Source of the DNA: Okamejei kenojei
Lineage: Eukaryota
Direction of reading: 5' to 3'
Length of the DNA: 64,000 nt
Assembly: GCA_035221665.1 (NCBI GenBank)
Contig: CM069151.1
Location: forward strand, 33,852,001-33,916,000
Shown: piece after piece, positions 6,607 to 61,928 of the stretch
Layout: every line of letters begins with the position of its first letter
Position numbering within the stretch: position 1 is the stretch's first letter
Made by a program: the position numbers and the translations under genes
Notes under the pieces: generated by a model
Told to the model about the DNA's origin: nothing
Seen by the model: only the letters and a program-made list of their open reading frames with translations
Database searches by the model: none

Positions 6607-6756
6607 NNNNNNNNNNNNNNNNNNNNNNNNNNNNNNNNNNNNNNNNNNNNNNNNNNNNNNNNNNNNNNNNNNNNNNNNNNNNNNNNNNNNNNNNNNNNNN
6701 NNNNNNNNNNNNNNNNNNNNNNNNNNNNNNNNNNNNNNNNNNNNNNNNNNNNNNNN
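6607..6756. other. Assembly gap (150 N)
   Basis: N run. Confidence 1.
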
Positions 6757-23900: not shown

Positions 23901-26900
23901 TATGAATAGTTGGAGGTCTTAAGAGACGTGAGGGTCTAGGTGTGTAGGAAAGAACAGCAGATGTTGATTTAACTTGAAGATAGACACAAAAGGCTGGATT
24001 AAATCAGCGGGTTAGACAGCATCTCTGGAGAAAGGGAGTACGTGACATTTTGTGTCGAGACCCTTCTTCAGACCTAGGTGCTAGGGTCTAGGTGCTTGGA
24101 TCAGAAAAGATATAGAGGAGAAGCAAAATTATTGAATTGTTGCCTCCAGATGATTTTAAACCAATGGAATATAAAATCTGTCATACAAAATCTGGTTTAA
24201 CTATAGCTGGAGGACTTGAGCTTACTAGATCAGACCACAGAGAGACTACAGTGTAGACTTGGGTTTAGGTTTATTTATTGTCACCTGTTCCGAGGTACAT
24301 TAGAAAGCTTTGTTGTGCATGCTACCCAAACAGATCAGATATACTGTACATAAATACAAACATGATACTCAAGGACAATAGATAGAGCGCCTGACGTGTT
24401 GCGTGATTTTCATCAAGGATATTCAGAAGGATTTTCATCAAATATATTCAGAAGGATAATTCTGAATATATTCAGCGATTTAGTCTTGTTCAAGGGTATA
24501 AACGATGAAGAGTTGACCTGTGAAAAAAGTGAATGAGAGGGGAAAATCTCAATTTTTAAGATAGCCTCACATTCTTGGACAGCGCAGAGATCTTCACAAC
24601 CAACGAATGACTTGTTAAAAGTCAGTCCCTGTTGTTTTGTAACAATGGTAGATAACTGGTGTACAATAAGGTTTCATATAGGAAAGAACTAAATCTAAAC
24701 TCAGCCTGTGCCAAACCTTTGAGAGAACAACAATCCCTCTCCCCAGCTCCTATTACATTGCCCTACAAATGCCCCCTTTTTCAAATACGTATCTATGTTC
24801 CTTTTGAAGTTCTTGTTGAATTGACCATGACCATTTCTGGTAATGCAGTCTAGATTACCACAATTCCTGCCCATATCTCACTCCAGTTACCGAGCTATGT
24901 ACATGTCACACTCACCAAGCCACTGGTTCGGTTATTCCCCTTGAGTCACAAATTTCTATCTCTAACATGCTTCCAGACATGGGTTATACATTCTATTAAT
25001 TCATTTTCTATCTCCTCAGCACTCGATTGACTGCATGAATCCATTCTCACGGGAGCTGAACCAACTAGCAGAGTATCTTAAGGTAAGCTACACCATAATT
25101 TTAAAGATTCACTTTGTGGGGATTTCTGTTCCATTGTTAGATCATGAGGTCTATTTCACGACTAATTGTGTTTGTTAACAAATATCAAGAGCTTTGTTGC
25201 CCCTTGGCATTTGAGCAGGACGATGACTTTTGGTTGATGGTGTGACTGCTTTTGGCCTCTGATTGATGTCCCGCCACAATGAAGCACAAACATGAATCCT
25301 GTTACCACTTCAAACATGACTCCTCTTCCCATCAGGGGACTTGCTGGGACACTGTTGACCAGAGTAGACTTTTCCATGTTTATGATGAGGCAACCACTCC
25401 CACATGTTAGTGTCACCTTCAGCCTGCTATTATTTTGTGTTGATTCACAGCAGAAGGTATTTTTTGATGGGATCTGCAGTTTTTTCCACTGTTTCTTCAG
25501 GCGAGGCAAATGGAGATGGCTTACTATTATACTTGCTGCAGTGTAGTATTAGTATACCAGAAACACGGAATGATTACAGCTTGAAAAGAAACTATGTGCT
25601 CTATGCAAAGGTAATCCAACCTGTCCCACTCTCTTGCCTTCTTCTCTGAACCCAGTAAATTAATTTATTTTCAATATTTATCCATTTCTTATGAATATCC
25701 CAATTCAATCTGTCTCTGCTATTAACCCCTGGTAGTGCATTCCAGACCCTAACCATTCACTGTGTAAGAATATTTTTTCTTGGGTCACCTAAGTTATTCT
25801 AATGACAATTACTATTATTTTACGTCCCCTAATTCTTAACCCCTCTGCCACTATCAGTTTCTGTTTATCTTTATTTCCTTTACCCGTCATTATTTTAAAG
25901 AACACTATCAGCTCTCCTCACAACCTTGTCCGTCCTAAGGAGGACAGGTCTAGGCACTCCAGTCCATTCCACAGGATGTGGATTGTCATCCCTGGAATTA
26001 TTTTGATAATTGTCTTCTGCACCTTCTTCAGATCTGTTCTAAAGTGTAGACAAAATTAATTATTTGTCGTCGAATGAGTATTTTAAGATAGTTCATCATG
26101 ACCTTGTTCTTCTGCTGTGTTTCTGTTTATAAAGTCCAGCATGACATATTCTTTTATTAACCTCTGTCTGAACCAACCCTGCAATTTGTACATAAATACC
26201 CACCAGTTCCTCTGTACTTTCACTCCTTTTAAAATTGTACCTTTCGGCTTACATTGACCTTTTCAATTGTTTTTCTATCAAAATGTAACATTTTATATTT
26301 CTTTGTATTAAATTTCTTCTATCATCTAGTTGCCTATTCCACAACCATGTTTGTATCTCCTTGCTGTCTATTACCCTCCTCTTTACAGTTCACCATGACT
26401 TCAAGTATTGTGCCATATGCCCTGTACATCTACATTCAAATAATTAATTTGTAAAATATTAAGAAAAACAGTGATCTTAGTACAGACCCAGAGGGAACAC
26501 TACTGTACACTTACTTCTCGATCAAAGTGCAATTTTTAATTTTACTCTCTGATTCTTGTTACTTTCTAAAGCACTGCAACAGCCCCTTTTATTACATGTC
26601 CTTTTGATGACAGACCTATTATGTGGTACCTCATTGAATGCCTTTTGGAAGTACACGTATACCACATCAACTGCAATTCCTTGCAGCACTTTTAGTAACT
26701 TCATTAAAAAAATCTCAATCAAGTTAATTAGATATAATTTGCCTTTAACAAAATTCATGCTATTTTCGTTCCTGCGCTGTTTTTTTAACAAGGTTCCAAT
26801 GATCTTCATGTTACAATTCCTGGGCATTAACTCTGAATCCATAGGTCTTTAGAAGATTATGGTCAGTGGCCCTGCAACCTCCTTCCTTAATTCCTTTAAT

Positions 26901-29900
26901 AACTAGAATATTTCCCATCTACATGGGTCCTAAGGCACTCCGTGTGTGCTTCTGAAGTTAACGTAAATCATACACTGCTGAGATTACCATAACAACTTAC
27001 AATGAGCAAGTATTGCTGAAATTACCAATTATACCAGTATGCTATCGCCATACCCTTTGATAGCCAGTGTATGTTGGTAGGGTTACCATTGCCAGCGAGA
27101 GCTTTTGTTCGTTACTATGGTTACTACCCCCTTTGATGCACAACTTGCATTGTTGGCGCTTTTGCATCTTGTGACAGCCAGAATGCATTGCCAGGTATAT
27201 TATACCTAACAACGGTCGATGTGCATTGCTGAAGTTACCATACCCTTTGGGAGTCATTGGTATGGTTACCTTGGGTCCAATGGCAGCCATAATGTGTTGG
27301 AAGTTTCCTATTGGCCCCTGAGCTGGCAAAGTGTTATGGTTATGAAGATTTTTAGGGTGTGTTCCCAAAGGATAAATGGCAGCCAGCATGCTCTGCTGAA
27401 TCTCACAGGTCTTATGACAGCAAATATATCTTGCATGGGTAGCAGGATCCCTATGACAATGAATGAATGAATAGTTTATTTCGGTCATACATTAAAAAGA
27501 ACAAAACTTTACAATCTATGTGAATATGAACCAACACTGTATCCATTTCACACAACGTTCACATAATCAATGACCAAAAAAGGAATAGGCTGAAGCCACA
27601 AAGCTTATTTTTGCCTATTCTATACAATCCATAAAATAATCCAGAATATCAGCATTTCTAAGGAAAGAAAAAAAAACTCTAAATTGTAATCCTTACTTAT
27701 TTTACATTTTAATCATTTTACAGTATAATACTTAATTAGTTTACATTTTAAGGCTTTTTTGAAACTCAACAGAGAGCTACAAAATTTCAACTCATCACTA
27801 AGCCCGTTCCATAATTTGACTCCCAAAACTGAGACACATCTACATTGGTTCTCACTTTACATGTTTCAAAAATACACAACCCTCTTAAATTATAATGTCC
27901 TTCTCTTAATTTAATTTTTTTTTAAATACTAATAGGAAGGCTTTTATTCCTAACTCGGAAAAGTATTTCTAATGTATTTACATGCACAATATCCAAAAAC
28001 GTTAAGGTACCGGACTTTATGAATAATGGATTTGTAGTTTCACGGTAAGAAGCTTTATGTATTATTCTTATAGCTCTTTTCTGGAGTTTAATTATAGGGT
28101 CTATATTTGTTTTATATACATTTCCCCAAACTTCAACACAATATGACATATATGGCATTATAAGCGAGCAATACAATATATACAAACACTTCTTATTCAA
28201 CAGATCCTTTGTTTTGTAAAAAATAGCAATGGATGTAGATAATTTCTATTTGATGTATTCTATATGTGGCTTCCAACAAAGTTTATGATCTATAATCACT
28301 CCCAGGAATTTTGTTTGATATACCCTTTGAATTTCAACTCCATTCAATTTTATTTCACAATTAACCCTGTCACCACCAAACACCATAAATGTTGTTTTAT
28401 TTTAATTTAGGGATAATTTATTAATATCAAACGATTTTTTTTTTTAGCACTATCAATTCTCTTTCTACTGTTTTCAATAGTTCTTTTATATCATTCCCTG
28501 AACAAAATACATTTGTATCACCCGCAAACGTAACAAACTTCAACGTATTGGATACTTTACAAATATCATTTAAATAAAGTATAAATAACTTAGGTCCCAG
28601 TACCGAACCTTGTGGAACACCACAGGTTACTCTTCTAAGCTGTGATTCAGTATTATTAATTTTTACATACTGAAACCTATTACTTAAATAATTTCCCAAC
28701 CAATTTTGTGTGACACGTCTTATACCATAACGTTCCAATTTCTGCAAAAGTAAGGAATGATCAATTGTATCAAATACTTTACATAAATCAATAAATACAC
28801 CCACAATGTGTAGTTTCTTATCTATTGCTGTTGCTATATTTTCTACAAAATCCATCACCGCTAAAGATGTCGATCGATTACTCCTAAACCCATATTGATG
28901 ATCACTCAATAACTCATATTTCTCAATGAAGTCATCAAGTCTATTCACAAATAGCTTTTCAAGTATTTTAGAAAATTGAGGTAGCAAAGACACAGGTCTA
29001 TAATTTGATACCATATGTTTGTGTTGCTTGGGTTTTCATAGGTCTGTGATAATGATTGTGTGTAATAAAGTCATGATGGCCTAATGGCCTTTACCATTTG
29101 TGCAGATAGTAGCACAGGTACATCAATGTCTTCTGTTTTCTGTTGCAGGAGGCTTTGCAGCGCGAGCAGCTCCTGGAACAGAAGTTGGAGACGCTGCAGT
29201 ATTTACTGACCAATACACAGGTCCTCTCTGACAATGTCTGGCAGGTACAAACCTCTTCTTCTCTATAGTGCTGTGCTCTGATCCCCTATAGCTGGTGCAT
29301 CCAGCAAATACTGGCTCTCCATTAACGGTACTCCGCAAACCACTAGAGTGTGCTAGTCCTCCGATCCGGACACACATGGGTATGTACTTCTCTGCACACT
29401 AAACAAAGACAACTATTCAGCGGCTGCACTGGAAACCTGGTGTGAGCCCCAGGCCTCCCTGCTTCCAGGAGGCTGACATGAATGAATTGCTCCTTGGTAT
29501 GGAGAGGCTGTTTGTGAGAGTTGGTCACGGTGGGTCACGGCAGGCAGGGCCACCTCTTGCTGCTCCATGCTCCGGGGCCACCGTTGCTGCCCCATGGCTG
29601 GCATGATGAGCATGGACCATTGCTGTTCCTTGCATTAACCCAGAGTTTACAGTCATTCCCATCACCTCCCATTGGACATGATGGAAGCTGGTGAATCCCC
29701 CTCTCTTTGGTTGGCTATATTGGCCTCACCCAGCTGGAGATTGCTCTAGTGTAACAAGCTGAATGGCCAGCCGTCCTTGGTGCGCTACAATGAATCTTCT
29801 GGTGCTCATGTTCCTGAGAGAAACAGCATCATTCTGATTCATATCCAGCATGTATACTATTATATACTTTAGTTTACAGATGCAGCATGGAAACAAGCCC

Positions 29901-32900
29901 TTTGGCCCACCATGTGTCCATGCCGACTAGCGATCCCCGTACACCAACACTCTCCTACACACACTAGGGACAATTTACTATTTTTACCAAGCCAATTAAT
30001 CTACAAACCAGTGCGTCTTTGGAGTGTGGGAGGAAATCAGAGATCCCGGAGAAAACTCACGCAGGTCACGGGGAGAACATACGAACTCCGTACAGACAGC
30101 AACACTGCCTTTTAGGGTCGGTCAGGATCGAACCCGGGTCTCTGGCACAGTAAGGCAGCAACTCTACCACAGTGCCACCATGTCGCCCATTGTGTCCAGT
30201 AATATATCCCTCACAACACTGCCTTTCCGTTTACCTTGGTGTATCAACACCCACAGACGATCCCGGAGAAGATGCAGCGCTCATACAGTATACTGTAGCC
30301 CAGCACAGGCAGCATCCTTTGATCATGCTCCTATAGAGACAACAGCTTAGACAAAACCAAGTACAGCAATATACATTGACAATAGATAATAGGTGGAGGA
30401 GTAGGCCATCCGGACCTTCGAGCCAGCACCGCCATTCAATGTGATCATGGCTGATTATCCCCAATCAGTACCCCGTTCCTGCCTTGTCCCCATATCCCCT
30501 GACTCCGCTATCTTTAAGAGCCCCATCTGGCTCATAAACCTAACCCCAACTGAGATGGCTGGATGGCCGAAGACAAAGAGTAGCAATAACGGGGGCTTTT
30601 TCTGGTTGGCTGCCAGTTGGCTGCCAGTGACCAGCAGAGTTCCATATAGTGTAGCAAATTTTGGTAGTAGGAATAAAAGTGTAGACTATTTTCTAAATGG
30701 GGAGAGAATCCAGAAATCGGAGGTGCAAAGGGACTTGGGAGTGTTGGTGCTGGATTCCCAAACAGTTAATCTGCAAGTCGAATCGGTAGTAAAGAAGGCA
30801 ACTCAACACTAGCATTTATTTTAAGAGGGCTTGTATACAAAACTAGGGATGTAATGTTGAGGCTCTTTAAGGCATTGGCAAGGCCGCATTTGGAATATTG
30901 TGAGCAATTTTGGGCACCATATCTGAGGAAGGATGTGCTGGTTCTGGAGAGGGTGGAGAGGAGATTTACAAGAATGATCCCAGGAATGAATAGGTTAATC
31001 TATGGTGAGCATTTGTTGGCACTAGGCCTGTACTTGCCAAGTTTAGAAGAATGAGGGGGGACCTCATTGAAACATATGGAATAGTGAGAGGCTTGGATAG
31101 AGTGGATGTGGAGAGGAAGTTTCCACCAGTGGGAGAGTTTAGGACTAGAGGTCATAACCTCAGATTAAAGGACGTTCTTTTAGGAAGGAGATGAGAAGAA
31201 ATTAATTTTGTCAGAGGATGGTGAGTCTGGAATTATTTGCCACAGAAGGCTGTGCAGGCCGTCAGTGGATAATTTAAGGGCAGGGATAGATAGATTCTTG
31301 ATCAGTACAGGTGACAGAGGTTATGGGAAGAAGGCAGGAGAATGGGTTAGGAGGGAGAGGTAGATCAACCATGATATGAATGGTGGAGTAGACTTGTCCA
31401 CAGACAATATCCACAGTCTCTACCTCAGTTGTGACGATGTATGCAAGTAATAGTCTCGCAGAACTGGCAGCCAGACTGTGTTCCACACTGGGCTTTAGAT
31501 GATGTTTTGCTGGGTAGTGCCAGGGTCTTGATGCAGCATCATTGTAGATAACACATATCTCAATAATTAAGTAAAATCATCCATTTCATTGCTGGTTCCA
31601 TCAGTACTCTTGATCCTGCAATTGCACCTGATGCTAGTGAGATGCTCAGTGGGCCACCAGTGTAACTCAAATTCATGTCCAGACCTGTTCATGTTCATGA
31701 GGAAGGGTCTCAACCCGAAACGCCACCCATTCCATCTATCCAGAGATGTTTCCTGTCCCACTGAGTTACTCCAGCATTTTGTGTCTGTCTTCAGTTTAAA
31801 CCAGCATCTGCAGTTCCTTCTTACACATACTGTATTGAAATGTATGTGACTGACAAGCCATTTATTTGACTGTGGTAAATGCATTAAGACAATGCAGACA
31901 ATGTATAACATTGTTTCCGACTGACCCTCTTCCTTTATTAAGGTAGTTCAATTGACAGTATATCTGTATAAAAGCAGAAGCTCTCCACTTCTACAAAATG
32001 TTATATGGACACACTTGCAGTCTCATCCTTAATCCCTTTCTTTCTGTGAGCAATGACCAGATAATCTCTCTTGCAATACTTGGAAGTTTCCTTTTTACGG
32101 ACTTAGTTTAGTATAATTTAGTTTTGTTTGGAGATACAGCATGGAAACAGGCCCTTCAGCCCACCGAGTCCACACCGATCATCAATCACCTATTCACACG
32201 AGTTCAATGTCATTCACTTTTCCACACACTAGGGGCAATTTACAGAGGCCAATTAACTTACAAACCAACGTCATTAGGATGTGGGAGGAGATCGGAGCAC
32301 TTGGAGAAAACTTGCGTGGTCACAGGGAGAACATGCAAACTCCACACAGACAACACCCATGGTCAGGATTGACCCTTGGTCCTGTAAATCCTTTGCCACT
32401 GCATTGCCTTGGGCAATTAAATAAGTGTGTTGTGTGTTCATTGAGGATATATGATGCAGGGGTTGTGAAATCAGTAGGTTTAAAGGGCTGAATGGCCCTT
32501 ACTTTGCTTCATGTTTCAGATCCTATCCAGCTGTCCTGCTGTGGTTGTTACCTGTGAAGCAGGGGAGGGTATTTCTCCTGAGTAGGGTGGCAATGAACTT
32601 ACTAATGGATACCTTCCTCTGCAGGACACTCAGGCTGAGTGTGCAAATCTGACATTGAAGCACAGGGGATCATTCAAATCAGATTTGGATATCAAGACTA
32701 ATCACAAAAACATGGATGTAAAGGTGCAGGAGCTGAACAGTAAAACCGATCTGGAGAAGCTTACGGAGGCAAAGACAGGAAACACAGAAGGAGATAATAA
32801 AGATGGCGAGGAGATTCCAGAAGGAAAAGATCTGGCTTCACCTGACAATGATGTGGAGGATGGGTTGAACAGGAAACGTCGAAGACCAACTCTACGGAAA

Positions 32901-35900
32901 GGTAGGATCTCGGGGTGCGTGGTTTGTGAACTGAGTTTGCGATATCTGGAAACGTGGGTGTAGGGTACGTGAGAACTCGGGGGGTGGGAAAATAAATGCC
33001 TGGGGCTTTGGTGAAAAGGTGATCCTGCGCTGGGAATGGGGTATTTTGGGCTAGAGGATAGGATGTGGGACATTGACTGACCAGGGCCTAGAATTTTGAC
33101 CATGATGTTGTGGATGGAGATGGTGTGTGTGGGGCTGGGTTTGGGTGAGGTTTGTGGAGGTGAAGATTGTGTATGGGAATGGGAGTTGGATGTGGGGTTG
33201 GGGTGTAATGTGCAGGGGTTGTGATGGGGTTTGAAGGCTTTAGGTGTGTAGGGTGGGGATGGGGTATATGGAGGTGGGGATAGGATGTGTGGAGTTTGTG
33301 GGTTGGTTATTTGTCTCTCTTGTACGTAACGTTTTTATTTAAATGTTTGACTGAAATGTCCTTTTAAAATAATTACAAATTTAGCTTCTTGATATTTGTC
33401 TGTTACAGAAAAAAGACTCCAGGAATCGAAGATTCTCCGTAAACAAGCCATGATCAGAGACATGAGCGGTAACTGTACATCCGTATCAGCACAATACTGC
33501 TTTACAATCACTGCGTTACTGCGGTTGTGCATTCAACTCTCCATTCATCCCCTCCTTCGAAGTTGACTCTTTTCCCCTCCTGTAAAACTGCAGATTTTAT
33601 CTCCACCTACCTCCTGAAAAGTGCCGACTTCATCTCCTTTCCCTGAAGATGCTAACCCTTTCACACACCCACCCGTAAGGTGCTCTCTCCCTTCCCTCGG
33701 TGCTGACTCTCTCTCCCGTTCCCTAATGCTGACTCTTTTCCCCCTTCCCATGTGCTCTTTCCCTTCCTTCAAAGTGCTGACTCTCTCTCCCCTCCCTCAT
33801 TGGTGCTGACTCACTCTCCCCTCTATCATTGCTGCTGACTCTCTCTCCTGAAGATGTTGACTCTCTATATTCTTCCTGGAGGCCATTGACTCTTCTGCCC
33901 CCTGCTTCTTCCTCTGAAGGTTCTGACTCGATATTCTTCCTGGAGATTCTAGATCAGTTCTATCCTTGACACAGACCTCCCAACTATCCCGCTTTTGGCG
34001 GGATATTCCCGCTTTTTAGGTTCCCTTCCCGCCATTCTGAATTGTACCCTAATTATCCCGCTAAATTGTTCCTCCCGTGGTGAACGCCGGCGCCATGTGT
34101 CCCCGGTTTGCCAGCCCGCGCGATCAGCGGCACTTTGCCGGGCCCTAGTGGCCGCGCGTGCGCAGTGGGGGAGGGTTGCCGGGCCCCAGTGGCCGCGCGT
34201 GCGCAGTGGGGGAGGGTTGCCGGGCCCCAGTGGCCGCGCGTGCGCAGTGGGGGAGGGTTGCCGGGCCCCAGTGGCCGCGCGTGCGCAGTGGGGGAGGGTT
34301 GCCGGGCCTGGCGCCATTTCGAGCCATGCCACGCCCGGCCCAGAGCCCGGGCGGCGCCGGCCCGCGCGATCAGCGGCACTTTCTTGCCATCACCGGGCCT
34401 CCCCCCCCACCCCCACCCAGTGCGCAGGCGCAGACCCGCCGGCAACCTTGCCAAGTGCGCATGTGCCGCACCCGCCCGCCGGCAGCCCGCTGATCTGCAC
34501 CAGTGCGCAGGCGCATAGCCGCCGGCAACAACCCCAAGTGAGAGAAATGAAGGTGAGTCTAGTGCCAAGTTTATCAAAGTTTAACAAAGAATTATAAATG
34601 TTTCAGCATACATGTACCTTTTTCACATTTTGGCATTTAAAATACTTCTTCACAATTTAGAATTTGTGACATGGGACCCCGAATAGGGCGCCGCGACATA
34701 TTATGAATTTTCATTTAAAAATATGAATTTTGAGGGGAAATATTATGAATTTTGACAATCAAATGTTGGGAGGTCTGCTTGACAGGCTTTCTGTTATTGC
34801 ATTTGGCCAAAATAAAATCTACCTTTGTTTACCTCCTTTACAATGGCAATAATCCATATTTATCTTCAATATGTTTTAGAGAGAGGTCCCCCAGAGGTGA
34901 AGGTGCTGCGACAACAAGCGATTGTCCGAGATATGAGTGGTGAGTTTAGTTACTATGCTCCTGAGTCATGCAATAGAGTGCTCACTGACAATATTCACAC
35001 TCGTGTCCTGTTGGAGATGCGGTCGGGGAGGAAGAGAATTATTCCATTCCTTGCAACAATACATATCTGCAGGACAAGAGCAGCAATATATATCTGCTGT
35101 TAGACACGTACTTGTTCTAACAGCAGATTGGTATTGAATGGGTAGAGTCTAGTGATCTATGAATCATCCTTTATTTGACAGACAGAGGCTGTGTTCATTT
35201 TTGCTTTCTTATAATAAAAAGGCCCAAAGGGTTTTTTTGTCAGCAGAAGGTCAATTATTTTAGGAATGGAAACTCAGAGTTGTTGGGAGTTTCTGCAGAC
35301 ATTCTTAATCTTGGCAATGGGATATAGAATTGCAGGGGAGATTTAATGAAAGTTATCAAATTTATAATATTGATGGACTAGTTCCTCAGATAAACTGTTC
35401 CCCTGGCTGGAAAAAGTTAAGTGCTGAGGGTTCATCAGTCACTCACTGTAAGTGTGAGTCATGAGGTTAGGAGATATGGATTTTCTGTATTCCATCGTTG
35501 CAACATGGAATGATTCATACAGGGAATGTCTGATGGAGAGATCTTTGTATTTTTGAAAGAAAAATTAGGAGACTGTTGCAACTGAGGAAGAGTCAGAAGT
35601 GGAGTGTGAATGGAGCAATGGATTAGATTTAACTTCGTACAGGATCATACAGAGAGAATGGAACAGTGAGATAGTTTATGATTATTGTAGCAACAATCTA
35701 CTGTAATGTAGGTCAAATGGTTTGCTGTATATCAATTCTCAATGCAAAGTATACATACCATGTAATTCTGATGAAAGTTCATGGAACAATATGAAGGAAG
35801 TACTTGCCTATTCCCATTTCCACTATCAGTCCTGGGTTGGCAAAACGCCACTGCTCTTCCTCAGTGTTACACCAGGTGGCGCCATGGCCTGCTCTCGAGA

Positions 35901-38900: not shown

Positions 38901-41900
38901 ATGAGGATGCTACTTTATTTCAATTCTGATAAATCAGTGAGGATGCTCCTTTATTTGCTCTTTTAGTAATTTCTTATTGTGATGGAACTTGCAATTATGC
39001 ACCTGATTTGGGAGTTAGGCAAATAATGTGGCTCTACTTTGCAGCTGGCTCAGTGAAGAGCCTCGATGCCAGCTATGGTGGGCTCAGAGAGGATGCTAAT
39101 ATTGGTGAGCTTATTCTGCAGAGACAGGATTGGTGTTATCTCTCTCTACTGGTTTGAGGTGTCCCCTGGTAGATAATATAGTACAGGAATGCAACGATAA
39201 CTGCTATCCAGCCATTCTCACTATCAGCACCCTGGGAGTCACCAGGTACCAGAAGCTCAACTGGAGCAAGCACATAAATACATGAATTTAGGAGCAGATC
39301 AAAGGTTGAATCACCTGTGGTTTGTGGCTCACCTCATGACAACCAAAGACTTTTCCATCATCAAAAAATTGGAACTGAGATGGAATACATAATAGTAATG
39401 CACTACATGGATTGACTAGTGATTGTTAGTCAGAATGCAAAGAATCAATAGATGCTTCTCAGGTTATGAAAATTGCTAAATCTAATTGAACCTCAGCTAT
39501 TCACAATCTATATCAATAATTTTCCTGAAGGAATGAAACGTCATTGCTCATGATGCTCAAGCAGGTGAGATTATGAGTATGGAGGAGGATGGAATGAGGG
39601 TTTAAGAGGTCATGGACAAACTGAATAAATGTGGGAGAATGTGGCAGATGAACAATAATGTGGGGGAAAAAATGACACTATCCGTTAAGATGTACATAAC
39701 TGAAAAACAATGTTAAATGCGAGAAATTGGGGACCTACTTGTGTTTGTGCAAAGGTCACTGGACTCTAACATCTAGGTGCATATGGAGGACAACCATATG
39801 GAGGACAATTCATATGTTGGCCTTTCTTACAAAAGGATTTTGGAATTACTCAGCGGGTCAGGCAGCATTTCTGGAGAAAAGGAATAGGTGATGTTTCAGG
39901 TCAGAACCCTTCTTCATACCCGGGTTTCCACCCAAAACGTCACCTATTCCTTTTCTCCAGAGTTGCTGCCTGACCCGCTGAGTTATTCCAGCATTTTGTG
40001 TCTATCCCTGGTGTACGCCAGCATCTGTGGTTCCTTCCTACACATTTAACCTATAAACCAGTATGTCTTAGGAATGTGGGAGGAAACTGGAGCATCCAAA
40101 GGGAAACCCATGCGGTCACAGGGAGAACGTACAAATTCCGTACAGACGGTGCCCAAGGTCAGGATCGAACCTGGGTCTCTGGTTGTCTAAGGCAGCAACT
40201 CTGCCACTGTGCCACCCTAGTGAGAAATTATGTATTGAGGGGTGGTTCTGGGCACACAGTCCAGTGACAATCAGGCTTTCAGCATGTTTTGCACGGTGAA
40301 TAAACTCAGTGCATGTCCCATGAGATATGTGCTCTGGGCATGCCGTCCAATCAGGGTTGATACTGGCCTCAGTTGTGTAAACAACAGCATTGGAGCACAG
40401 ACCAGTGAGAGAAGGGGCTCTGGACATGACATGCTGAGAAATGCAGACTTTGACACATTGTCCATGAGGAACTGACTGTCAGAACATTGGCGAGTGAATG
40501 ACAAATGGCATGGAACATGGTCTATTGAATGATGGGTGGTCAGGTCATGGTGACCAGAACTGGGTTGATTCTGGGCTAGTGGCACACTATGTAGAAGAGA
40601 TAGGCTCTGTGCTCATTGTGCAGTGAGAATCTGGTCCTGTGTTTTCCACTCAGCCAGGGGCAACACTGAGCACACTGACACACAAGGGCGAACACTTTAG
40701 AGATTCTGTTGAATCGGTTTCTGGCGCTGTATCTCTTTTGATCGTGCTTTCTAAATTGGGTTCATTTTTATCAACATTTGTTTTACATAGGTGATGTGCT
40801 GTCTGCAGACAGCAAGGCAAATGAATCAACAACAAATGTCTCATCTTCAGGAGATCCAGAGTCACATATGAAGTCACCTGATATTCCAATCTGTGAGGTG
40901 AAATCAGAAGCATTCGAAATATCGGAGGTAAATTCAATGAATCTCAAAGCTCCTGAGATCAGTTCACCTGATTCCAAGTCAACTGATGTCAAATTACCTG
41001 ATCCCACACCAACCATGGTCATGTCAACTAATTCTGAGACATCTGAGGTCAGGTCAATTGTTCACACATCTTCTGAGGTCAAGTCAACATATTCCAATCC
41101 ATGTGAGGTTAAGATAATTGATCCTAATGTATCAGAGATCAAGTCAGATAATCCCAAACCATCTGAAATCAATTCAACATACCCTGAATCACCTGACATC
41201 AAGGCAGTTGATTCTAAAGCCTCAGTAATCAAGTTAATTGATTTCAAACCATCTGAAAATGAATCGACTTGTTCTAAATCATCTGATATCAAGACAATTG
41301 ATCCCAAAGTGATAGAGGTCAAATTAGCTGAACACGAGCCATCTGAGATGAAGACAATTGATCCTAAGATGTCAGAGGTCAAATTAGCAGATTCCAAACC
41401 ACCCGAGATCAAAACAGTTTATTCCAAACCATTTGATGGCAAGATGATTGATTCTGAAGTGTCAGAAGTCAAATTAGCAGATTCCAAACCATCTGAAATC
41501 AAGACAACTCATTCTACATCATCTGAGGCCAAGGCAATTGATGCTAAACAGTCAGAAGTTAAGTCAGCTGATCTTAAATTAGTGGAAATTGAATCAACAC
41601 ATTCGAAACCATACAACGTCAAGTCAAATGATCTTAAAATGCCTGAATTCAAGTCTGCTGATCTCATCCCAGCTGAGGTCAAATCAACTGATTCATCTGT
41701 GCCTGAATTCAACCCATCGAATTTCAAACAATCCATGGTGAACCCAGTTGATCTCAGACAAACAGAAGTTCAGTTATCTGATCCCAAACCATCTAGGGTC
41801 ACGTCAATTGATCTCAAACAATCTGAGATTAGATCAACACCTCTCAAACCATCTATAATAGAGTTAATAGATCCTAACCAATCCACGGTATTGTCAGCTG

Positions 41901-44900
41901 GCCCCAAGATGGTTCAAGTGAAGTCAACTGATCTCAAACCATCTGAAGTCACATCTACTGATTCCAAACTTTCTGAGGTCAAGTCAAGCACTACCAAGTT
42001 GTCTGAGATCAAGTCAACTGCTTCTAATGGGTCAGTGACCAAGGCAGCTGATTCCAAGCCTTCTGAGGTCACATTATCTGCACCCAATGATTTCAAGATA
42101 ACGTCAGTCATGCCGACTGATTACAAAATCAGATCAGATGGTCCCAATGAGGCAGAAGTCAAGTCAGTTGCTTCCCAGGAATATGAGGTCAATTCAGCTG
42201 CTCCCAAGACATCTGACGTCAAATTATCTGCACTTAACATATCTGAGACCAAATCAACTGATCCTGAACTTTCCAAGGTCACGTCAGCTTCTTCCAAAGT
42301 TTCTGAGATCAAGTCAACTGTATTCAACATGTCTGAGACCAAAGCAACTGATCTCAAATCTTCCGAGATCAAGTCAGCAGCTCCCAAGACGTCTGACGTT
42401 AGATTCGTTGCTCCTAAGGTTCCTGGGATCGTGTTAGCTATTCCTAAACCAGGTGAGGATGCGTTATCTGTTACCAAAACAGCTGAGATCAACTCAACTG
42501 ATCCTGAAGTATCTACAGTGATATCAGCTAATCTAGAACTTTGTGATATGGTGGCACGTTTCCATAAGTCTTACGACCAACTATTAAGCAAACCAGAAAT
42601 ATGTAGCATGAGGTCATCTGGTACTAAATCGTGCAACAATGTGCTTTGTATGTTGGAATTGGATGAGTTGAGGTTGCAGATTAAGCAGCTACGGAAGGAA
42701 TTGGAGGAATCTCAGGAACAAGCAGCCCGGCACCAGAGGAGCTATTTGGACTTACAAAGTAAGTGGATTTCATAAAGGAAAGGGTTTTTTGGGGGGGGGG
42801 GGGGGGAGGAGGGGGAGGCCAGGCCAGATGTGCTGCATTCCATGCTCAATCCTGGGAATGAGACAGGGGTTTTAGGGTTGGCAAGAATAGTCCTGTTTGG
42901 TGTGAAGCTGAGCAGTGGTGGGGAGTTGTGGGAATCAGACTTTGACATGCTGTGCTGGAGGGGCAATGGATAGACTGAAGGAACTGACATAAGGTGTTTA
43001 GGGAGTTGGATGTAGGAATGAGAGTTGGAGATGTAGGGTTTTTATGGACAGTTTCAAGAATTGGAGAGACATGTTGGGGAGTCAGTTTTACATCACTCCC
43101 CATCAAAGGATGTAAAAGTCCCTATCAAAGGATGTAAAAGTCAGACAAGTCACTTTTACATCCTTTGGGCCATAGCATTATATCTAACTGAAAACATATA
43201 TTATCATGAAGGCATCTGGAGAAGTTGAAGTCTCACAAATTGCCCTTGTAATTGCAGGATGAACTTTTTTTGCTCCTGCACTTAAACCTCTTGTAAAAGG
43301 GGCAACATACCATTTGCCTTCCTACTGATTTGCTGAACCTACACGTAGGGTTTGTGTAAACTGGTCCAAGTACTTCTGAACAGCAGATCTTTTCAACACC
43401 CAATTTAAAAAAAAATTAAATAAACATTTCTACTTTTTTCTTCCAAATTGGAGGGCTTCACATTTTCCCACTCTGTATTTCATGTGCTATGTCCCTACTC
43501 AGCCAATTAACCCGTTATTTCTTCATAGCTCCCTACATTTTCTTGCAACTCAAAGATTAAAATTGCTGGAAATATTCAGCAGGTCAGGCAGCATCTGTGA
43601 GTGGAGAATAGAGTCAATGTTGCAGGTGCATGAGCTCAGCTCCCACTGCCATCCTGCTTTTTTTTAACACTATGGTGAGCTTTACCCTTCTACCTCCCCT
43701 GGCTATGTTCAGTGGAAGAGTGTAGAGAGAGATTCACGATGTATTTAGCCGCTGTCATATCAATCTCTTGCCTTTCCAAACACTGCAGGATTGCTGGAGG
43801 AACAACGATTGGTCAATGTGCAACAGACTGAAAACTTTGCCAAACAGATCCAGCGTCTCCAAGGTGAGTGACAGTTCTTGGGTTTGAGCTGTGCTGTAGA
43901 ACGCAAACATACCACAGTGACTGAGGCTGGGGATAAGCAATACGAAGCAGAGAAGTGCAATGCCATATGAGGATATGAGCAGAGCCCAGCAGCGTGGCTG
44001 GAGACCCTGGCGTAAATGTAGATTCCTCATTCTCAATTAAAAGATGAAGGAAATAAAAGTTACATTAGCAAATTTGCAGTGTGGCAGTGTGAACTGTGAA
44101 GAGGATTCTATGAGGATGCACGGTGACTTGGTCAGATTGGGTGAGTGGGCAGATGCATGGCTTTTGCAGTATAATGTGGATAAATGTGAGGTTATCCACT
44201 TTGGTGGCAAGAACAGGAAGCCAGATTTTTACCTGAATGGTGTCAGGTTAGGAAAAGGGGAAATACAATGAGACCTGGGTGTCTTTGTACATCAGTCACT
44301 GAAAGTAAGCATGCTGGTACAGAAGGCAGTGAAGAAAGCTAATGGCATGTTAGCCTTCATAACGAGAGGAGTTGAGTATAGGAGCAAAGAGGTACTTCTG
44401 CAGTTGTACAGGGCCCCGGTGAGATCACATCTGGAGTATTGTGTGCAGTTTTGGTCTCCTAATTTGAGGAAGGACATTCTTGCTATTGAGGGAGTGCAGC
44501 GTAGGGTGATGAGGTTAATTCCCGGGATGGCACGACTGACATATGATGAAAGAATGGAGCGGCTGGGCTTGAATTCACTGGAATTTAGAAGGATGAGAGG
44601 GGATCATATAGAAACATATAAAATGATTAAGAGATTGGACATGCTAGATGCAGGGAACATGTTCCTGATGTTGGGAGTGTCCAGAACCAGGGGCCATAGT
44701 TTAAGAATAAGGGTAGGCCATTTAGAACTGAGATGAGGAAAAACTTTTTCACACAGAGTTGTGAATTTGTGGAATTCTCTGCCTCAGAAGGCAGTGGAGG
44801 CCGATTCACTTGGTGCATTCAAAACAGTTAGATAGAGCTCCTAGGGCTAGCGGAATCAAGGGATATGGGGATGCAGGAACGGGGTACTGATTGTGGATGA

Positions 44901-47900: not shown

Positions 47901-50900
47901 CGTTAGATAGACACAAAATGCTGGAGTAACTCAGCAGGCAGGCAGCATCTCCAGGGAGAAGGAATGGATGACGTTTTGGTACAAGACCCTTCTTACACAA
48001 TTCTTTCCCCCTTGTTTGCTGTCTGAGAACAAGGAGTTTCAGCTCCAGTGGCTAGAAAAGCATGATGCCACTACCTGAGAGGTATTGGCTGCAATGACCG
48101 AACTCAAATCTCTTTCTTTAACCAAAGCAGCAGACTCAATAACAACACTTATAGATATCTGCTTTGTCCTATTCAGTGCAGCTTCGGTCTGTCCAGGAGG
48201 AGATTGAGAGCTTGGAGGAAGAGAAGGAGAGTGAGCTGACAGAAGCACATGAGGAACTTCACTGCGCACAGGAGGAGATTGTGAATCTCCGTCAGGCAGC
48301 CGAGGAGGCAGCGGGAGAACGGGAAAATGAGATTGCAACGTTGCAGGAGGAGCTATGTCGTATTCGGGCTGAGCTGGAACACCTTCAGCAGACAACAGTG
48401 GAGTATGAGCTGGAGATCACCACACTCCGAGCAGAGATACAGATGAAAAGTGACAGTCGACAGAAGAAAAACTCTGAAGAGGTTACTCAGCTCCAGGGTA
48501 TGATCCAGGCAGTGAAAGATATGTCCTATACAGAGGGGTTTATTAAATGGAGAGGGGATTCCATATAGAACAACATGGTGGGTAGATGTGTATTGCTAAG
48601 TGGTAGATTGAGATTGTTATTGGTGTTCATGTGGTACTAATTACCTAATTTCATGTGGGGTTAGTCACTGGTTTAAAAAAAAGGTCCAAAGTACTTGATG
48701 ATGAGTTCAGATGATAGACTTCATGGGTGGGGATCCTGTTGTTACTTTTCAAGTCATGTGAATGAATGAGAAATGACACTGCCTAGTGAAAGGAGAGATG
48801 TCAGGAGATTTTACTCTTGGACTTTAGCACCAGTTCCAGGAGCAATTGAGCTATAGAAAATAAATTAGAGAACTGAATGAATAGCAAAAATAGACCAGGC
48901 AAGCAAAGCAAGACTAGTGAAATGGGCAAATCAAATTTAACAACATGGAATGTTAAGTTAAGTTGAAGGAGGAAAAGAAAGAAGAATTTAATGGAATTCA
49001 AAGGGGGTTCAGAAACAGTGGGCAGAAAATAAGATTACTACCATAGATATTGTCTATAATAGCCAGATATCTCATATAGATATTGTGGGCCAAATGACCA
49101 ACCTCGAGCTGCATTATTTAATAACTATATATAACTAAAGATGTGAAGGCAAAAAGAGCATGTACAAATACGATGGACTGAACTGAGCAGGCTGTGGCCA
49201 GCTGTTCAAAGGAAATTCAGTGTTCAACTGCTTGCAGGTAAGTAAATCACAGATCTGATGCAGACCCACCGTTAGTAATGGATGAGCTGAGTGACAGAAA
49301 CCAGCAAATGTGTTTCTGTAATCTCACACCAGTCAGACCTAGTGTTGGATCAGAGTCCCCTTTCAATAATTTCATTTATACTCACTTTATATAATTTCAT
49401 TGTTTTAATGCATGTAAAATACTCTAGTTATTTTGCCTTTTGTAATATTTCAAATGATTGAGACATTTAAAAATCTGTGCAAAATTGCATAACATTTGAC
49501 AGATGTTAGAGACAGAGATACATTCCCCACACCCAATCTCCGACCTTGTCTCCTGTCAAGGGCTGTCGGGATATTTGGGGTAGTGTCCCAGCTGTATGCT
49601 AGCTAGCTGCTGACACCTTGCTATGCCTGTCTTACTTCCGATTTGGGAGGCCCAGGGCGAAATAGACCCAACCATCTGTGCCACATTAGTACATATATAG
49701 GGAGAGCATTGAGCAATGGGCATTGAAAGGTCCAACGGAACACACTCAACTGAGACAATTCAGCCAATATATTTTAGGAGGAAAACAAAAAAAAAATGAG
49801 ATTCTGTATCAATATGAGTAACTGAGAGAAAAGCTGGGAATAGACATGGAAATGATGTAGGTGGCACAATGGTAGAGTTGCTACCTTAAAGCGCCAGAGA
49901 CCATGGATTGATTGTGACTATGGATGCTATCTGTATGGAGTTTACACGTTCTCCCAGTGACCGCATGCGTTTTCACCGGATGCTCCGGTTTTCCACCACA
50001 TTCCAAAGACGTGCATGTTTGTAGGTTAATTGGCCACTGTAAATTGTCCCTAGAGTGTAGGATAGAACTAGTGTACAGGTCATCGTTAGTCGGCTGGGAC
50101 TCGGTGAGCCGCAGGGCTGTTTCCACGCTCTATCTATAAACTAAACTGATGCAAAGTCAATATTAATGCAAAACTTAAAACATCTCATTACAGTAATGGC
50201 ATTAACACCTCCAAGTGAAAGGAATCTAGTCTAATTAGAAAGACGAGTAAAGAATAATCAAATTGTTGTGACTAGAAATGTTTAATGATTCTTTCTCACT
50301 GGGCAGAAAGTGAGAGTAAAGAAATAGGAATGAAATTCCTAAATTGCATAAAGGTTTTCTCCCTCCAGCAATGTGTTATTCAGCCCACAAGGACAAAGAC
50401 ATCACTAGAACTAATAAAATTGATTTTGTAGATGAACTAGATTAAGACAGTGACCCCAGCACTTTTAAAATCCAAATGGAAAAGGAAACATATTTGTACA
50501 AAAACTGGAAGAGGATGAGTTTTGGGCAGACATGTGTATAAAGACATGTTGGTGGTTGTGAGGTGGAAAGAGTTACCGATTAACTGGACTGCGGAGCATA
50601 GTTTAAGAAAGTAAACAAGACCAGGTACAGGCCTTGAGGCTTCTCGGTCTCCTCTGTTTTTCTTCATGATTACGCCTGGTCTTTTACCTTAAGTCCACTA
50701 TTAATTCACTCTCATATGCATTTGTTGTTCAAAAATAAAGCTAACTCGGCCAGTAAATAGACGCAACAACTCATGTCCACAGCGCTCTCGAGCAGAGAAT
50801 TCCACACCATTCAAAAGCCTCGGAGGAATAAAAAACATTTTATCTCAGCCCTTTATCCTGAGACAAGGCCCTCTTGTTCTACACTCTTTGGCCTCTCATT

Positions 50901-53900
50901 TTTCTAAATTCCAATCAGTATATACACCTCCTGCTTAATATTTCCTCACAAGCTAATCTCAGAAATCAATCATAGCATTTGTAGGGAAATTTGATTTCTT
51001 CATCTTTCAAATGGATTATTTTTCTCCCTAAACCTTTTTCTGCCATAAATTTGCTAGGAATTCCTGACTGTAGTACAAGGTGGCCCCTATGGCTCCCATA
51101 GAAAAAGGAACACCAGAGGTGGATATGTTCCTCACTAGCTTGTCCAGGTCCTTCTCGTCCTGTAAAAACACTTTCCCACCTCCGTCCATCAATGCAGCAT
51201 CCATCCATTCAGCAGCGGAAGAGTGTTGAGTGGTGCTTCCATCGTCACACCTGCTTGCTACATTTTGACAAATGTGAGAACTTGCAACACATCAAAAAAA
51301 ACAATAAACTCAGTTTCAGCGCGGTTCTACCTGACGATTAAAGTTCTCGGTTTTCATGTGACTTTCACAAACAGCATTAGGGTGACCTGCACCAATGTCA
51401 GAAAAATGCTGAAGATCAATTTCTAAGCCAATTTCTTAGCTACATTGGCGGTAGAAAACAAATAAAAAGATGTAATGGTAAACCATTGTAACGCATACAC
51501 AATTGCACATACAATTGGCTATGGGCATAGTGTTCAATTCTGAAAAAATAAGCGATTTTATGGGGGCATTGAAAAATTACAAATTCTTTAGGGCATAACA
51601 GATAAAAATAGATAGGAGGGTACACAAAAAGCTGGAGAAACTCAGCGGGTGCAGCAGCATCTAAGGAGCGAAGGAGATAGGCGACGTTTCGGGTCACGAC
51701 CCGAAACGTCGCCTATCTCCTTCGCTCCTTAGATGCTGCTGCACCCGCTGAGTTTCTCCAGCTTTTTGTGTACCCTCGATTCTCCAGCATCTGCAGTTCC
51801 TTCTTTAAAAAAATAGATAGGAGGTTGCTTAGAGATTTAAAGTGCTTAGCAGAAGAACCAGGCAACAGGAGGACACTGTTTTGGACAAAGTAAGTTGTAG
51901 TGATTGGGAATGCACAGCCTGAAAACATGATAAAAATAGATTAAATTATTTACTTCAGGAAGAAAATTAATGAAAATAATTATATGCCATTGAGGAAAGT
52001 GAGATTAACTGGGTAGCTCTTTCACAGAGTAGACTGCCATGATGTGCTAAATGCTCTTTATCTGAGCTCTACCACACTATGATTCTGTTAATAAGTATGT
52101 TCCATAAAAAAAAAAGGAAATTACAATTAATTTTGGGATGTTGAGGGAAAAACAATTGGACATAACAAGAATTATCAATTATGTGTGTGGGAATGCAGTT
52201 AAACAGATAAAATAAGGCAACGGGCGAAGACGAGTTGAGAAAAGACATTAAAACAAAACAAAAGGAAAAACATTTTACATATTTTGAACATAAAATTAAT
52301 ATCAAGTGGAATTGCGGAAGGGGAGGATGCTATCAATTAGATTTGAGAAGTGGGGGAGGTGGGAAGGGTTGGTGGGATATTTGTACGTGTTATAAACGTG
52401 TGGTTCTGTGTGGGATGGTTAAATGCCCAAACTTGCCTGGCTAAATGTCTTCTGTCACAACCCCTGCACATTTCAGTGTAAATCCATCACGATAGGAATG
52501 AAGGAAGTGGCTAAAACAATGCCTTTTTTAGCAGGGTTTTTTAGGGTATGGAATTCTCGACCAGAAGTTATTATCTCCCTGCATGTGTGTGTTGCTATTT
52601 AAACTGTGTGTGTAACAGGTGCAGTACAGTGTCTGCAGGTTGAGTGTCGAAATCTGGCTCAAGAATGTCGAGTTCTGCAGAATGATAACAAACAGCTGAG
52701 GGAAAGACTGCAGCAAATGGAACGGCAGTATTGCAGGTAGGACAAATTAACTATGTTATGTATGCTTTGGTACGTAAGGCTTGCACCCTCTCTCTCTCAT
52801 ATACAAATAAACAAACATGTATTCACGTGCATTCACACAACACACACACCTTTATCAATAAAAAACACACACTTATACACAAATTCACCATTATGCTTAT
52901 TCATGCTCTCACACACATGCTTGCTTCCACCCTCACTCACATATTTAGTCACCTTATACATTCACTCTCACACTTAACACTCACACACAACCTCTTGCAC
53001 ACTCGTTGATGCATTTATTAATAACTAAATCTATGATGTGCTTACACTCATGTGCTCCCACATATACTCACTTATTTTCTCTCTCTCTCGCTCGCACACA
53101 CATGTTCACTCCTGCTACTTCAAATTCATGCATGGCCTCTCNNNNNNNNNNNNNNNNNNNNNNNNNNNNNNNNNNNNNNNNNNNNNNNNNNNNNNNNNNN
53201 NNNNNNNNNNNNNNNNNNNNNNNNNNNNNNNNNNNNNNNNNNNNNNNNNNNNNNNNNNNNNNNNNNNNNNNNNNNNNNNNNNNNNNNNNNNNNNNNNNNN
53301 NNNNNNNNNNNNNNNNNNNNNNNNNNNNNNNNNNNNNNNNNNNNNNNNNNNNNNNNNNNNNNNNNNNNNNNNNNNNNNNNNNNNNNNNNNNNNNNNNNNN
53401 NNNNNGCTTGGTCTGGTTCTCTTCAAACAGCTCACCAACTTTCATTCTGCCTGCTCATTATAATAGTTTCAGCCACAACATGATGTGCTGTCAATTGTCC
53501 AGGCACTCAAAGGGGACTCAATTTTATGAGTGTAAACATGATTAAACTAACGGAAATTATCAAAATGAGCTTGCATCCCCCACAAATGAGGTGGATTGCA
53601 GCTCCAAGAAGTGCACTCATTAAACCTTGCGGCAGTAACAGGAGATGTTGGGCTCCATATTTTCCCAGCACCAGAGAACAGGAAGAGAAAACAGGGAATG
53701 AGGTCAACAGGGGTCACTCAATATCTTGTTGCTGTATTGGAAGTGTTGATTTCTGTCTCACGGCCTGAGATTGCTACAATTATTGTTGTTAAATGATTGT
53801 GTTATAATGGGCTGATGGGGTGCCAGTGAAATACAGCAAGCCATTCTCTAATGGGTTGCAGGATTGCTGGTTCGCTGACAGGGATGGTAGCAGTTGCTCC

Positions 53901-61434: not shown

Positions 61435-61928
61435 TAAGGAAATAATATCAAATTAGAGAAGGGAAGGGCAAGACGTGGAGTTTAAAAACGTGGAGACGTG
61501 GAGTTTAAAACATGGCTCTGTTTCAGTGGAATGTCTGTTTTTTGTAGGGCTTGAGCCAACATGGAAGTCAGGAAGAGAACAGCCTCTGATAATGCATTTA
61601 GTGTTCTGGCTTTTGGGAGATTTGATGAGACGCCTAGTCTTGAGCACACAAAGGTGGGTTGTGTGATTGACAGGATTATAATAGTTATTAAGCCAGAAAT
61701 TATAAATAAGCGGATTTTAAATTAGAGGTGATAATTTAACATCTTGGTGTTAAATAATTTGTTCTAATTATGGTGTAATAGTGCAGATTCGTGAAAGGAA
61801 CACAGTCTGATTTAACATATCTATTTAAACATTTATGTTCATATTTTCATTTTTCATGACAATACGAACAACCCTACCTCACTAGGTTAGACCCCTACAC
61901 TAGCGGATTATTATATCTTTCTCTAGGA

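Follow-up and report, generated by a model that had tools for sequence, protein, structure and literature searches.

A diverged array of 55 decapeptides in a CCDC136 exon of a ray, probably a disordered spacer derived from a coding minisatellite

A 64,000-nt stretch of the genome of Okamejei kenojei (assembly GCA_035221665.1, contig CM069151.1, positions 33,852,001 to 33,916,000, forward strand; hereafter the window, numbered from its first letter) raises the question of why 55 consecutive ten-residue units, strongly diverged from each other, should keep one register within an exon of a gene that, judged from its best matches, is elasmobranch CCDC136. A sequence-only reading of the window had taken the kept register as a sign of structural selection, acting either on a beta-solenoid or on a PEVK/neurofilament-like spacer. 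The units and their uninterrupted frame, the context of exon and gene, a weak constraint on amino acids, evenly mixed charges and the lack of a predicted fold are shown here, and we consider it probable, with real room for doubt, that the array is a disordered polyampholyte spacer derived from a coding minisatellite.

The features of the array and its exon are as follows.
40892..42541, plus strand: core array, 55 in-register units of 30 nt (10 residues), by unit count, profile and frame.
40802..40891, plus strand: eroded 5' edge, holding at 40862 one in-register unit of low score (3.6 bits) and at 40805 what may be an off-register remnant (9.2 bits).
42542..42661, plus strand: eroded 3' edge, which reaches the heptad anchor in four ten-residue blocks; that at 42602 scores 10.7 bits in register.
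42092..42121, plus strand: unit 41, with a possible compensated -1/+1 frameshift that depends on the gap penalty.
40791..42758, plus strand: array exon, which also takes in both frayed edges and the first heptads of CCDC136, with AG/GT ends and stop-free in the gene model.
42644..42758, plus strand: first CCDC136 heptads, 50 % identical over 34 residues to lungfish and newt CCDC136 and helical in AlphaFold2.

Unit count and frame check bear out the 55 consecutive decapeptides first reported: positions 40892–42541 of the plus strand comprise 1650 nt, or 55 × 30 nt, without an in-frame stop, and the other five reading frames hold 25, 83, 52, 6 and 70 stops. Column majorities give S-E-V/I-K-S-T/A-D-P/S/L-K-P, in agreement with the consensus read earlier, and any two units agree on average at 29 % of residues and 55 % of nucleotides; units 17 and 20, which had been called identical, are so in protein and agree at 29 of 30 nucleotides. 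Residue identity reaches 0.29–0.33 at lags 10, 20, 30 and 40, and 0.03–0.10 at lags that are not multiples of five; since the values at lags 5, 15, 25 and 35 (0.11–0.13) lie between these, the five-residue sub-period already proposed is genuine but weak. A strong higher-order repeat was rejected, there being local 60/90-nt echoes only.

Scored on a leave-one-out unit profile (background elsewhere in the window: 99.9th percentile 2.2 bits, maximum 15.3), 53 of the 55 units fit best at offset 0, the exceptions being units 41 and 53. The same profile shows that the edges fray past 40892–42541 into in-register remnants at 40862 and 42602, so that the limits first drawn hold for the core and not for the whole of the repeat. 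Gapped alignment to the cyclic profile yields no indel at a gap-open penalty of 8, edge events at 6 and, at 5 or below, a -1/+1 pair in unit 41 (at about 42108/42117, some 9 nt apart), whose gain of 14.6 bits is the largest among the 55 units (next, 10.2 bits). One compensated frameshift inside unit 41 is therefore possible, as one possible exception to the indel-free register that had been claimed. The exon itself (1968 nt, phase 1-1) ends in the first CCDC136 heptads, which match CCDC136 orthologues (11 of 123 at E ≤ 1e-3), and the array does share an exon with them, as the sequence-only reading had it.

Certainly, the reading frame of the array is under selection, because neutral mutation of the consensus unit to the observed divergence produces a mean of 13.0 stops against none seen (0 of 5000 runs were stop-free), and because the 344–508 substitutions in the array predict 35–51 indels, 4.3–6.3 of them in frame. 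Shuffling the array by column likewise leads to an expectation of 3.8 stops (P(0) = 0.006). The indel rate was calibrated on 12 dispersed-repeat pairs in the window, which together differ by 484 substitutions and 49 indels, 6 of the latter in frame; the repeat copies that supplied this neutral calibration (44043–44978, 54488–55369, 21417–21729 and 31075–31382) are 83–86 % identical and are, we presume, LINE-like (long interspersed nuclear element). Frame selection alone accounts for most of the missing indels. Of the argument that had led from register to structural selection, what stands is that this is coding-type sequence under selection; the further link is weaker than it seems, since only four to six in-frame indels are expected.

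The amino acids of the array are weakly constrained. Divergence is near-equal over the three codon positions (0.54, 0.59 and 0.52), the units being 31 % diverged from the consensus; the ratio of non-synonymous to synonymous change (dN/dS) is 0.70, 0.69 and 0.55 by counting, and with a codon model that allows for CpG and assumes a star tree it is 0.80 (p = 0.047 for the departure from neutrality). By column, the ratios for positions 1–10 are 0.64, 0.57, 0.77, 0.68, 0.73, 1.28, 0.87, 0.90, 0.60 and 2.12 (p = 8e-5 for the per-column model), the would-be core positions 6 and 8 thus standing at 1.28 and 0.90. Among 16 composition statistics, tested on an assumed star tree that somewhat inflates significance, the non-neutral ones are a shortage of Gly, Arg, Pro and aromatics, a surplus of Ser/Thr and a net charge slightly on the acid side, and acid is retained at position 2 in 41 units as against 28 under neutrality (P = 0.0007). 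Charges at the would-be inward positions 1, 3, 6 and 8 number 4 against 6.9 (P = 0.18); their near-absence is within neutral expectation and an inheritance from the ancestral unit. The units are related nearly as a star, with a parsimony length of 344 steps against 358 ± 5 for shuffled columns and a unit similarity that is flat by lag.

Neither of two AlphaFold2 runs produced a fold. On the single sequence, the pLDDT score (predicted local distance difference test) was about 28–37 over the array, with almost no strands and with helices only past the array; for an 80-mer in alignment with six further stretches in register, the predicted template modelling (pTM) score was 0.13, with no secondary structure. 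According to one account, AlphaFold2 is prone to over-calling beta-solenoids on perfect repeats (PMC11795689), which lends these results slight extra weight. The array is 28 % charged at a net -0.03 per residue, with its charges evenly mixed (kappa 0.087 against 0.171 ± 0.019 for shuffles); Pro occurs in 33 of the 55 units, and the longest stretch free of it is 39 residues. The ESM Atlas returned nothing above 0.81 for the array.

A beta-solenoid of the pentapeptide type is not supported. Proteins of the pentapeptide repeat (Rfr) class fold into a beta-helix that is right-handed and quadrilateral, and the array shares with them a weak five-residue sub-period and a small-acidic-hydrophobic order; it differs in failing their consensus and in a Pfam score below the gathering cut-off (Pentapeptide_4, PF13599: 14.6 bits against 38, E 0.036). 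As quoted in one source, along with the 2006 and 2019 patterns, membership calls for at least 8 contiguous pentapeptides that fit the consensus (PMC8145042). Of the array's 110 pentapeptides, none fits the 2006 pattern and three fit that of 2019, the longest run being 1; the central position is Leu/Phe in 17 and Pro in 18, and Gly stands at the turn in one. With no fold in either of the two shallow AlphaFold2 runs, this part of the earlier proposal is not supported. The neurofilament type of phospho-spacer is not supported either: neurofilament tails bear repeated KSP phosphosites, and the 550 residues of the array hold no KSP and four S/T-P. What survives of that alternative is the PEVK-like spacer, which is the best analogy we have.

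The PEVK-rich region of periaxin was proposed as a non-folding molecular spacer, the source itself describing a role for periaxin that is without experimental proof (PMC7072810). With periaxin/titin PEVK the array shares a polyampholyte nature, a pentapeptide flavour, richness in E, V, K and P, and a predicted lack of folding; it differs in that P+E+V+K make up only 37 % and Ser/Thr 25 %, and in that at most 7 of its 109 pentamers fit the broad form of the periaxin motif and 2 the curated form. By analogy, then, and not by homology, the array may work like a PEVK spacer without being a member of that group. Proteins of the Decapeptide family (PF25296), which are microbial or environmental, have in common with the array a period of 10 and an S/T-E-hydrophobic-K-S/T core: the top phmmer match (E 1.8e-26) is such a protein, and three of the six top matches are PF25296 proteins above cut-off. 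The array itself scores 19.9 bits on that model against a cut-off of 45 (E 7e-4), and where two members have near-invariant G/N, Y/F/I, T/S before Glu and Leu after it, the array has D, P/S/L, K and V/I. An unrelated medaka protein with a near-perfect ten-residue repeat (P0022, LOC101155010) also scores weakly on PF25296 (24.2 bits), so that such matches arise from period and composition. In Gram-positive surface proteins, five-residue Pro/Val/Glu/Thr/Lys repeats, presumably stalks, are similar in composition, and compositional the likeness remains, as theirs are near-perfect bacterial pentamers; two array-search matches inspected (of 17) were bacterial surface proteins of this kind, with five-residue repeats and an LPXTG-type tail.

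Is the array shared with relatives? The whole-exon homologue search gave 17 compositional matches and no orthologue over 360–1147 aa, and no match over 1148–3275 aa; of 100 repeat-type matches (13–43 % identity), none reached E ≤ 1e-30 and none had a best stretch that reached the heptads. Protein searches found no elasmobranch protein with the array, the whale shark model starting past the array region. Before their first heptad, 121 CCDC136 matches have a median of 84 and a maximum of 235 residues, often charged and variable, as against about 620 here within the same exon. No comparable periodic array was found in 119 bony-vertebrate-type CCDC136 matches, and no mammalian sequence is among the 120 matches listed.

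Strong periodicity is confined to two chimaera records (z 19–25 at lag 9; next, 4.4 and 4.2), that is, the Callorhinchus milii CCDC136 model (UniRef A0A4W3JQM1, P0245; also A0A4W3IXS9), whose tandem repeats abut the same heptad. Its order is 13 near-identical nine-residue units, a unique stretch and four near-identical ten-residue units leading to the heptad, in contrast to the 55 diverged ten-residue units of the ray; within residues 1–200 the nine-residue array is His/Asp-rich and the ten-residue array contains Cys. The unique stretch, spotted by eye before scoring, holds 20 residues that make two related units and reach, without gaps, 23.1 bits against the unit profile, a value equalled by none of 1500 shuffles (by 3 of 1500 with cheap gaps); the best of the other CCDC136 N-termini reaches 15.8 bits (92 scored of 118). 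With 68 residues between it and the heptad anchor, the matching stretch is 2 out of register, the ray array being in phase with the anchor. Off-register orthologues, which the sequence-only reading had set against its own proposal, are therefore found in part, in this chimaera model with its nine-residue units and two-residue shift. The repeat is likely to predate the chimaera–elasmobranch split, which one source puts at about 421 million years (Ma) ago (PMC3692497). Because the chimaera has related units, a shift and a different unit length, we suggest that this site has probably long been a hot spot for repeats and re-amplifies, with neither register nor unit length fixed across lineages.

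Several other candidates were rejected. The amplified ten-residue unit of the chimaera, suspected on account of its shared phase, is not significant as a homologue of the array unit (P = 0.08 at fixed phase, 0.66 at best phase), and its nine-residue unit scores near zero on the profile. A lungfish decapeptide remnant suspected by eye was discarded (z 1.6 at lag 10, P = 0.66), and a caecilian N-terminus (P = 0.01 among nine controls, z 2.7 among 92) was put down to chance. The chimaera cluster also lists four records of 50 residues, which were set aside as unrelated; the record name of P0245, 'Stress response protein NST1-like', looks like a mis-annotation.

The gene model around the array consists of eleven exons, chosen by eye, between 25020 and 59821, with AG/GT ends, compatible phases and 1204 stop-free codons. 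Besides the array exon they are the following.
25020..25082, plus strand: candidate upstream exon of 63 nt, phase 0-0, AG/GT and in frame, without a meaningful database match, and perhaps SLMAP-like.
29149..29244, plus strand: SLMAP-like coiled-coil exon of 96 nt, matching SLMAP chain 6akm_B residues 12–43 (E 1.2e-6).
32625..32901, plus strand: candidate exon of 277 nt from the gene model, a charged linker without a Pfam or PDB match.
33409..33468, plus strand: candidate 60-nt exon, phase 1-1, first of a duplicated pair (39 of 60 nt identical to 34880..34939).
34880..34939, plus strand: candidate 60-nt exon, phase 1-1, second of the pair, from the gene model and pair identity.
43789..43863, plus strand: CCDC136 coiled-coil exon of 75 nt, 62.5 % identical to fish CCDC136.
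48177..48497, plus strand: conserved CCDC136 exon of 321 nt, with the PF28341 CCDC136_middle region; whale shark model 92 %.
52619..52736, plus strand: CCDC136 coiled-coil exon; whale shark model 86 %.
57623..58061, plus strand: variable linker exon of 439 nt; whale shark model 41 %.
59687..59821, plus strand: last coiled-coil exon found; whale shark model 87 %.

Exon 48177–48497 carries the gene assignment: it has 337 protein matches at E ≤ 1e-6, the whale shark model being the best of them, PF28341 is present in all 120 of the best 120 of these 337, most of which bear the name CCDC136, and identity to chimaera, fish and amphibian CCDC136 matches is 61–78 % (chimaera model 62 %). CCDC136 orthologues have a tail anchor, and no convincing exon for a C-terminal transmembrane tail anchor was found within the last 4 kb of the window; at 61549–61593 (plus strand) a good acceptor precedes a short open stretch closed by two stops, which may be an alternative last exon that encodes no membrane anchor. 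Runs of N at about 6607–6756 and 53143–53405 are assembly gaps and could hide an exon. The paired exons 33409–33468 and 34880–34939 are likely to be a duplicated cassette exon, each with a basic L-R-x-Q motif that we take to resemble a kinase docking or substrate site. Young minisatellites, intronic or upstream, lie at 13860–14242, 34135–34308 and 12775–12924 (units of 31, 19, 41 and 45 nt), and Rfam has no match within the window.

The SLMAP-like coil encoded at 29149–29244 is, we assume, the SIKE1-binding coil of SLMAP, and it matches none of the 123 CCDC136 proteins fetched. No FHA motif was found upstream on the plus strand of 1–29100 with three patterns. CCDC136 is named as a paralogue of SLMAP in a source that also describes the recruitment of SLMAP3 to STRIPAK via SIKE1 (PMC11484480). 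Cartilaginous-fish CCDC136 may retain an ancestral STRIPAK-docking coil.

We suggest that unequal crossing-over, or slippage by whole units, amplified an ancestral 30-nt coding unit; the almost star-like relation of the copies makes a single old burst probable. Whole-unit amplification would set the register for free. After copying ceased, point changes would have piled up as selection purged stops and frameshifts, the composition being only lightly trimmed (acid at position 2, Val/Ile at position 3, few Gly, Arg and aromatics). The product would be a charge-balanced, expanded and non-sticky disordered chain of ~590 residues, about 210 nm in contour length and, by a scaling law, about 6 nm in coil (hydrodynamic) radius, and it would keep the N-terminal part apart from the CCDC136 coiled coil and membrane anchor. 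In long isoforms such a spacer would link the CCDC136 coil and its tail anchor with the SLMAP-like coil; were translation to start at the in-frame ATG near 40868, the array would be a free N-terminal brush. In either case length and composition would matter, and exact register little.

Several observations weigh against a disordered spacer. The array has no uncompensated in-frame indel against the 4.3–6.3 predicted (P(0) 0.009–0.03, including calibration error), and selection on register to some degree is possible; this absence is less surprising because the array was chosen and delimited for being in register. Position 3 has an excess of Val/Ile-type residues (48 where neutrality predicts 40, P = 0.008), Gly is depleted (6 for 18 predicted, P = 0.0003) and so is Pro (44 for 59, P = 0.007), and a beta-strand would favour each of these as well. 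The mean hydropathy of 0.438 falls just on the folded side of the charge–hydropathy boundary (0.424), and the six PDB sequence matches (E 0.008–0.26) are all to designed beta1 repeat proteins or IcmE/DotG, which we take to be pentapeptide-type solenoids. The AlphaFold2 runs had shallow inputs (1 and 7 sequences) and are weak negatives, and the chimaera evidence is one predicted gene model lacking a start, with two matching units. Finally, from phase only do we infer the joining of the candidate exons into one transcript and the expression of the array exon.

An unlikely alternative is a conditionally ordered periodic binder, a chain disordered on its own whose S-E-V/I-K-S strands would dock onto a partner with a repeating structure, be it a cytoskeletal lattice, a membrane or, as an in-register sheet, the sister chain within the coiled-coil dimer, their spacing being mildly selected. 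The deficit of in-frame indels and the retained acid at position 2 are what it would lead one to expect, as is the distribution of dN/dS, which is lowest at positions 2 and 9 (0.57 and 0.60) and 0.64–0.77 at the rest of positions 1–5 against 2.12 at position 10; constraint is nevertheless weak at all positions, and the amplified chimaera units are off the profile, even the ten-residue unit at its fixed phase.

An autonomous beta-solenoid or two-sided beta-roll, arisen de novo from the minisatellite with 20 residues per coil, about 27 coils and a rod of about 13 nm, is improbable. The alternation of charged and uncharged columns that would suggest it is inherited and not selected, and the weak Decapeptide and Pentapeptide_4 matches in its favour stay below their cut-offs. 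Weak PDB matches, a hydropathy on the folded side and the depletion of Pro and Gly speak for it; a dN/dS of 0.64–1.28 at the core positions, the failed pentapeptide consensus with its central Pro and single turn Gly, and the two AlphaFold2 runs without a fold speak against. We hold equally improbable the boldest reading, in which a coding minisatellite older than the chimaera–elasmobranch split was recruited in sharks and rays as a new proline-tolerant beta-roll or lattice-binding rod of 55 units, set between a retained STRIPAK-docking coil and the CCDC136 membrane tether and held in register by its structure.

More doubtful still is a passenger expansion, in which a translated exon stays open around a functionless, tolerated repeat. 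A dN/dS near 1 (0.80), the young-minisatellite look of the chimaera arrays and the failure of any of 92 other CCDC136 N-termini to exceed 15.8 bits are in its favour, and the sequence evidence does not tell it clearly apart from a spacer. Set against it are some 590 residues retained to 31 % divergence without collapse, a non-neutral composition, and the presence of a long repeat tract at this site also in the chimaera, whose lineage diverged about 421 Ma ago by the date in PMC3692497. That the array is non-coding (intronic, with the true acceptor near the heptads) or an assembly artefact is scarcely credible, even with a whale shark model that begins past the region and no elasmobranch protein found with the array, given 1968 nt kept open against the stops and indels expected, the lack of any phase-compatible acceptor between array end and heptads under the filter used (six candidates lie at 40851–42453) and a unit divergence too high for assembly duplication.

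Considering what a disordered spacer would mean, vertebrate proteins that are otherwise conserved are already known to carry long repeat spacers, and the array stands out among them by age, regularity and context, as an unusual lineage variant of an ordinary repeat type; no description of such a repeat was found among the open-access papers listed on CCDC136, SLMAP, cartilaginous fish and tandem repeats. As a spacer it would be a clean natural record of a coding minisatellite turning into protein, in which 55 star-like copies separate, within one exon, selection on frame (overwhelming), on amino acids (weak) and on register (marginal). It also warns against reading a fold into an old repeat on the strength of its strict register, which is weak evidence; should the array fold after all, vertebrates would have a solenoid that arose de novo, to the surprise of specialists. 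Mammalian CCDC136 is reportedly associated with cones. For human CCDC136, one source describes a protein mostly predicted to be disordered and linked to acrosome formation (PMC12101322). Cartilaginous-fish CCDC136, as the present gene model suggests, may keep an SLMAP-like N-terminal coil together with a very long tether, a combination unseen in the other CCDC136 proteins fetched, and this would bear on how acrosome- and cone-associated CCDC136 diverged from SLMAP.

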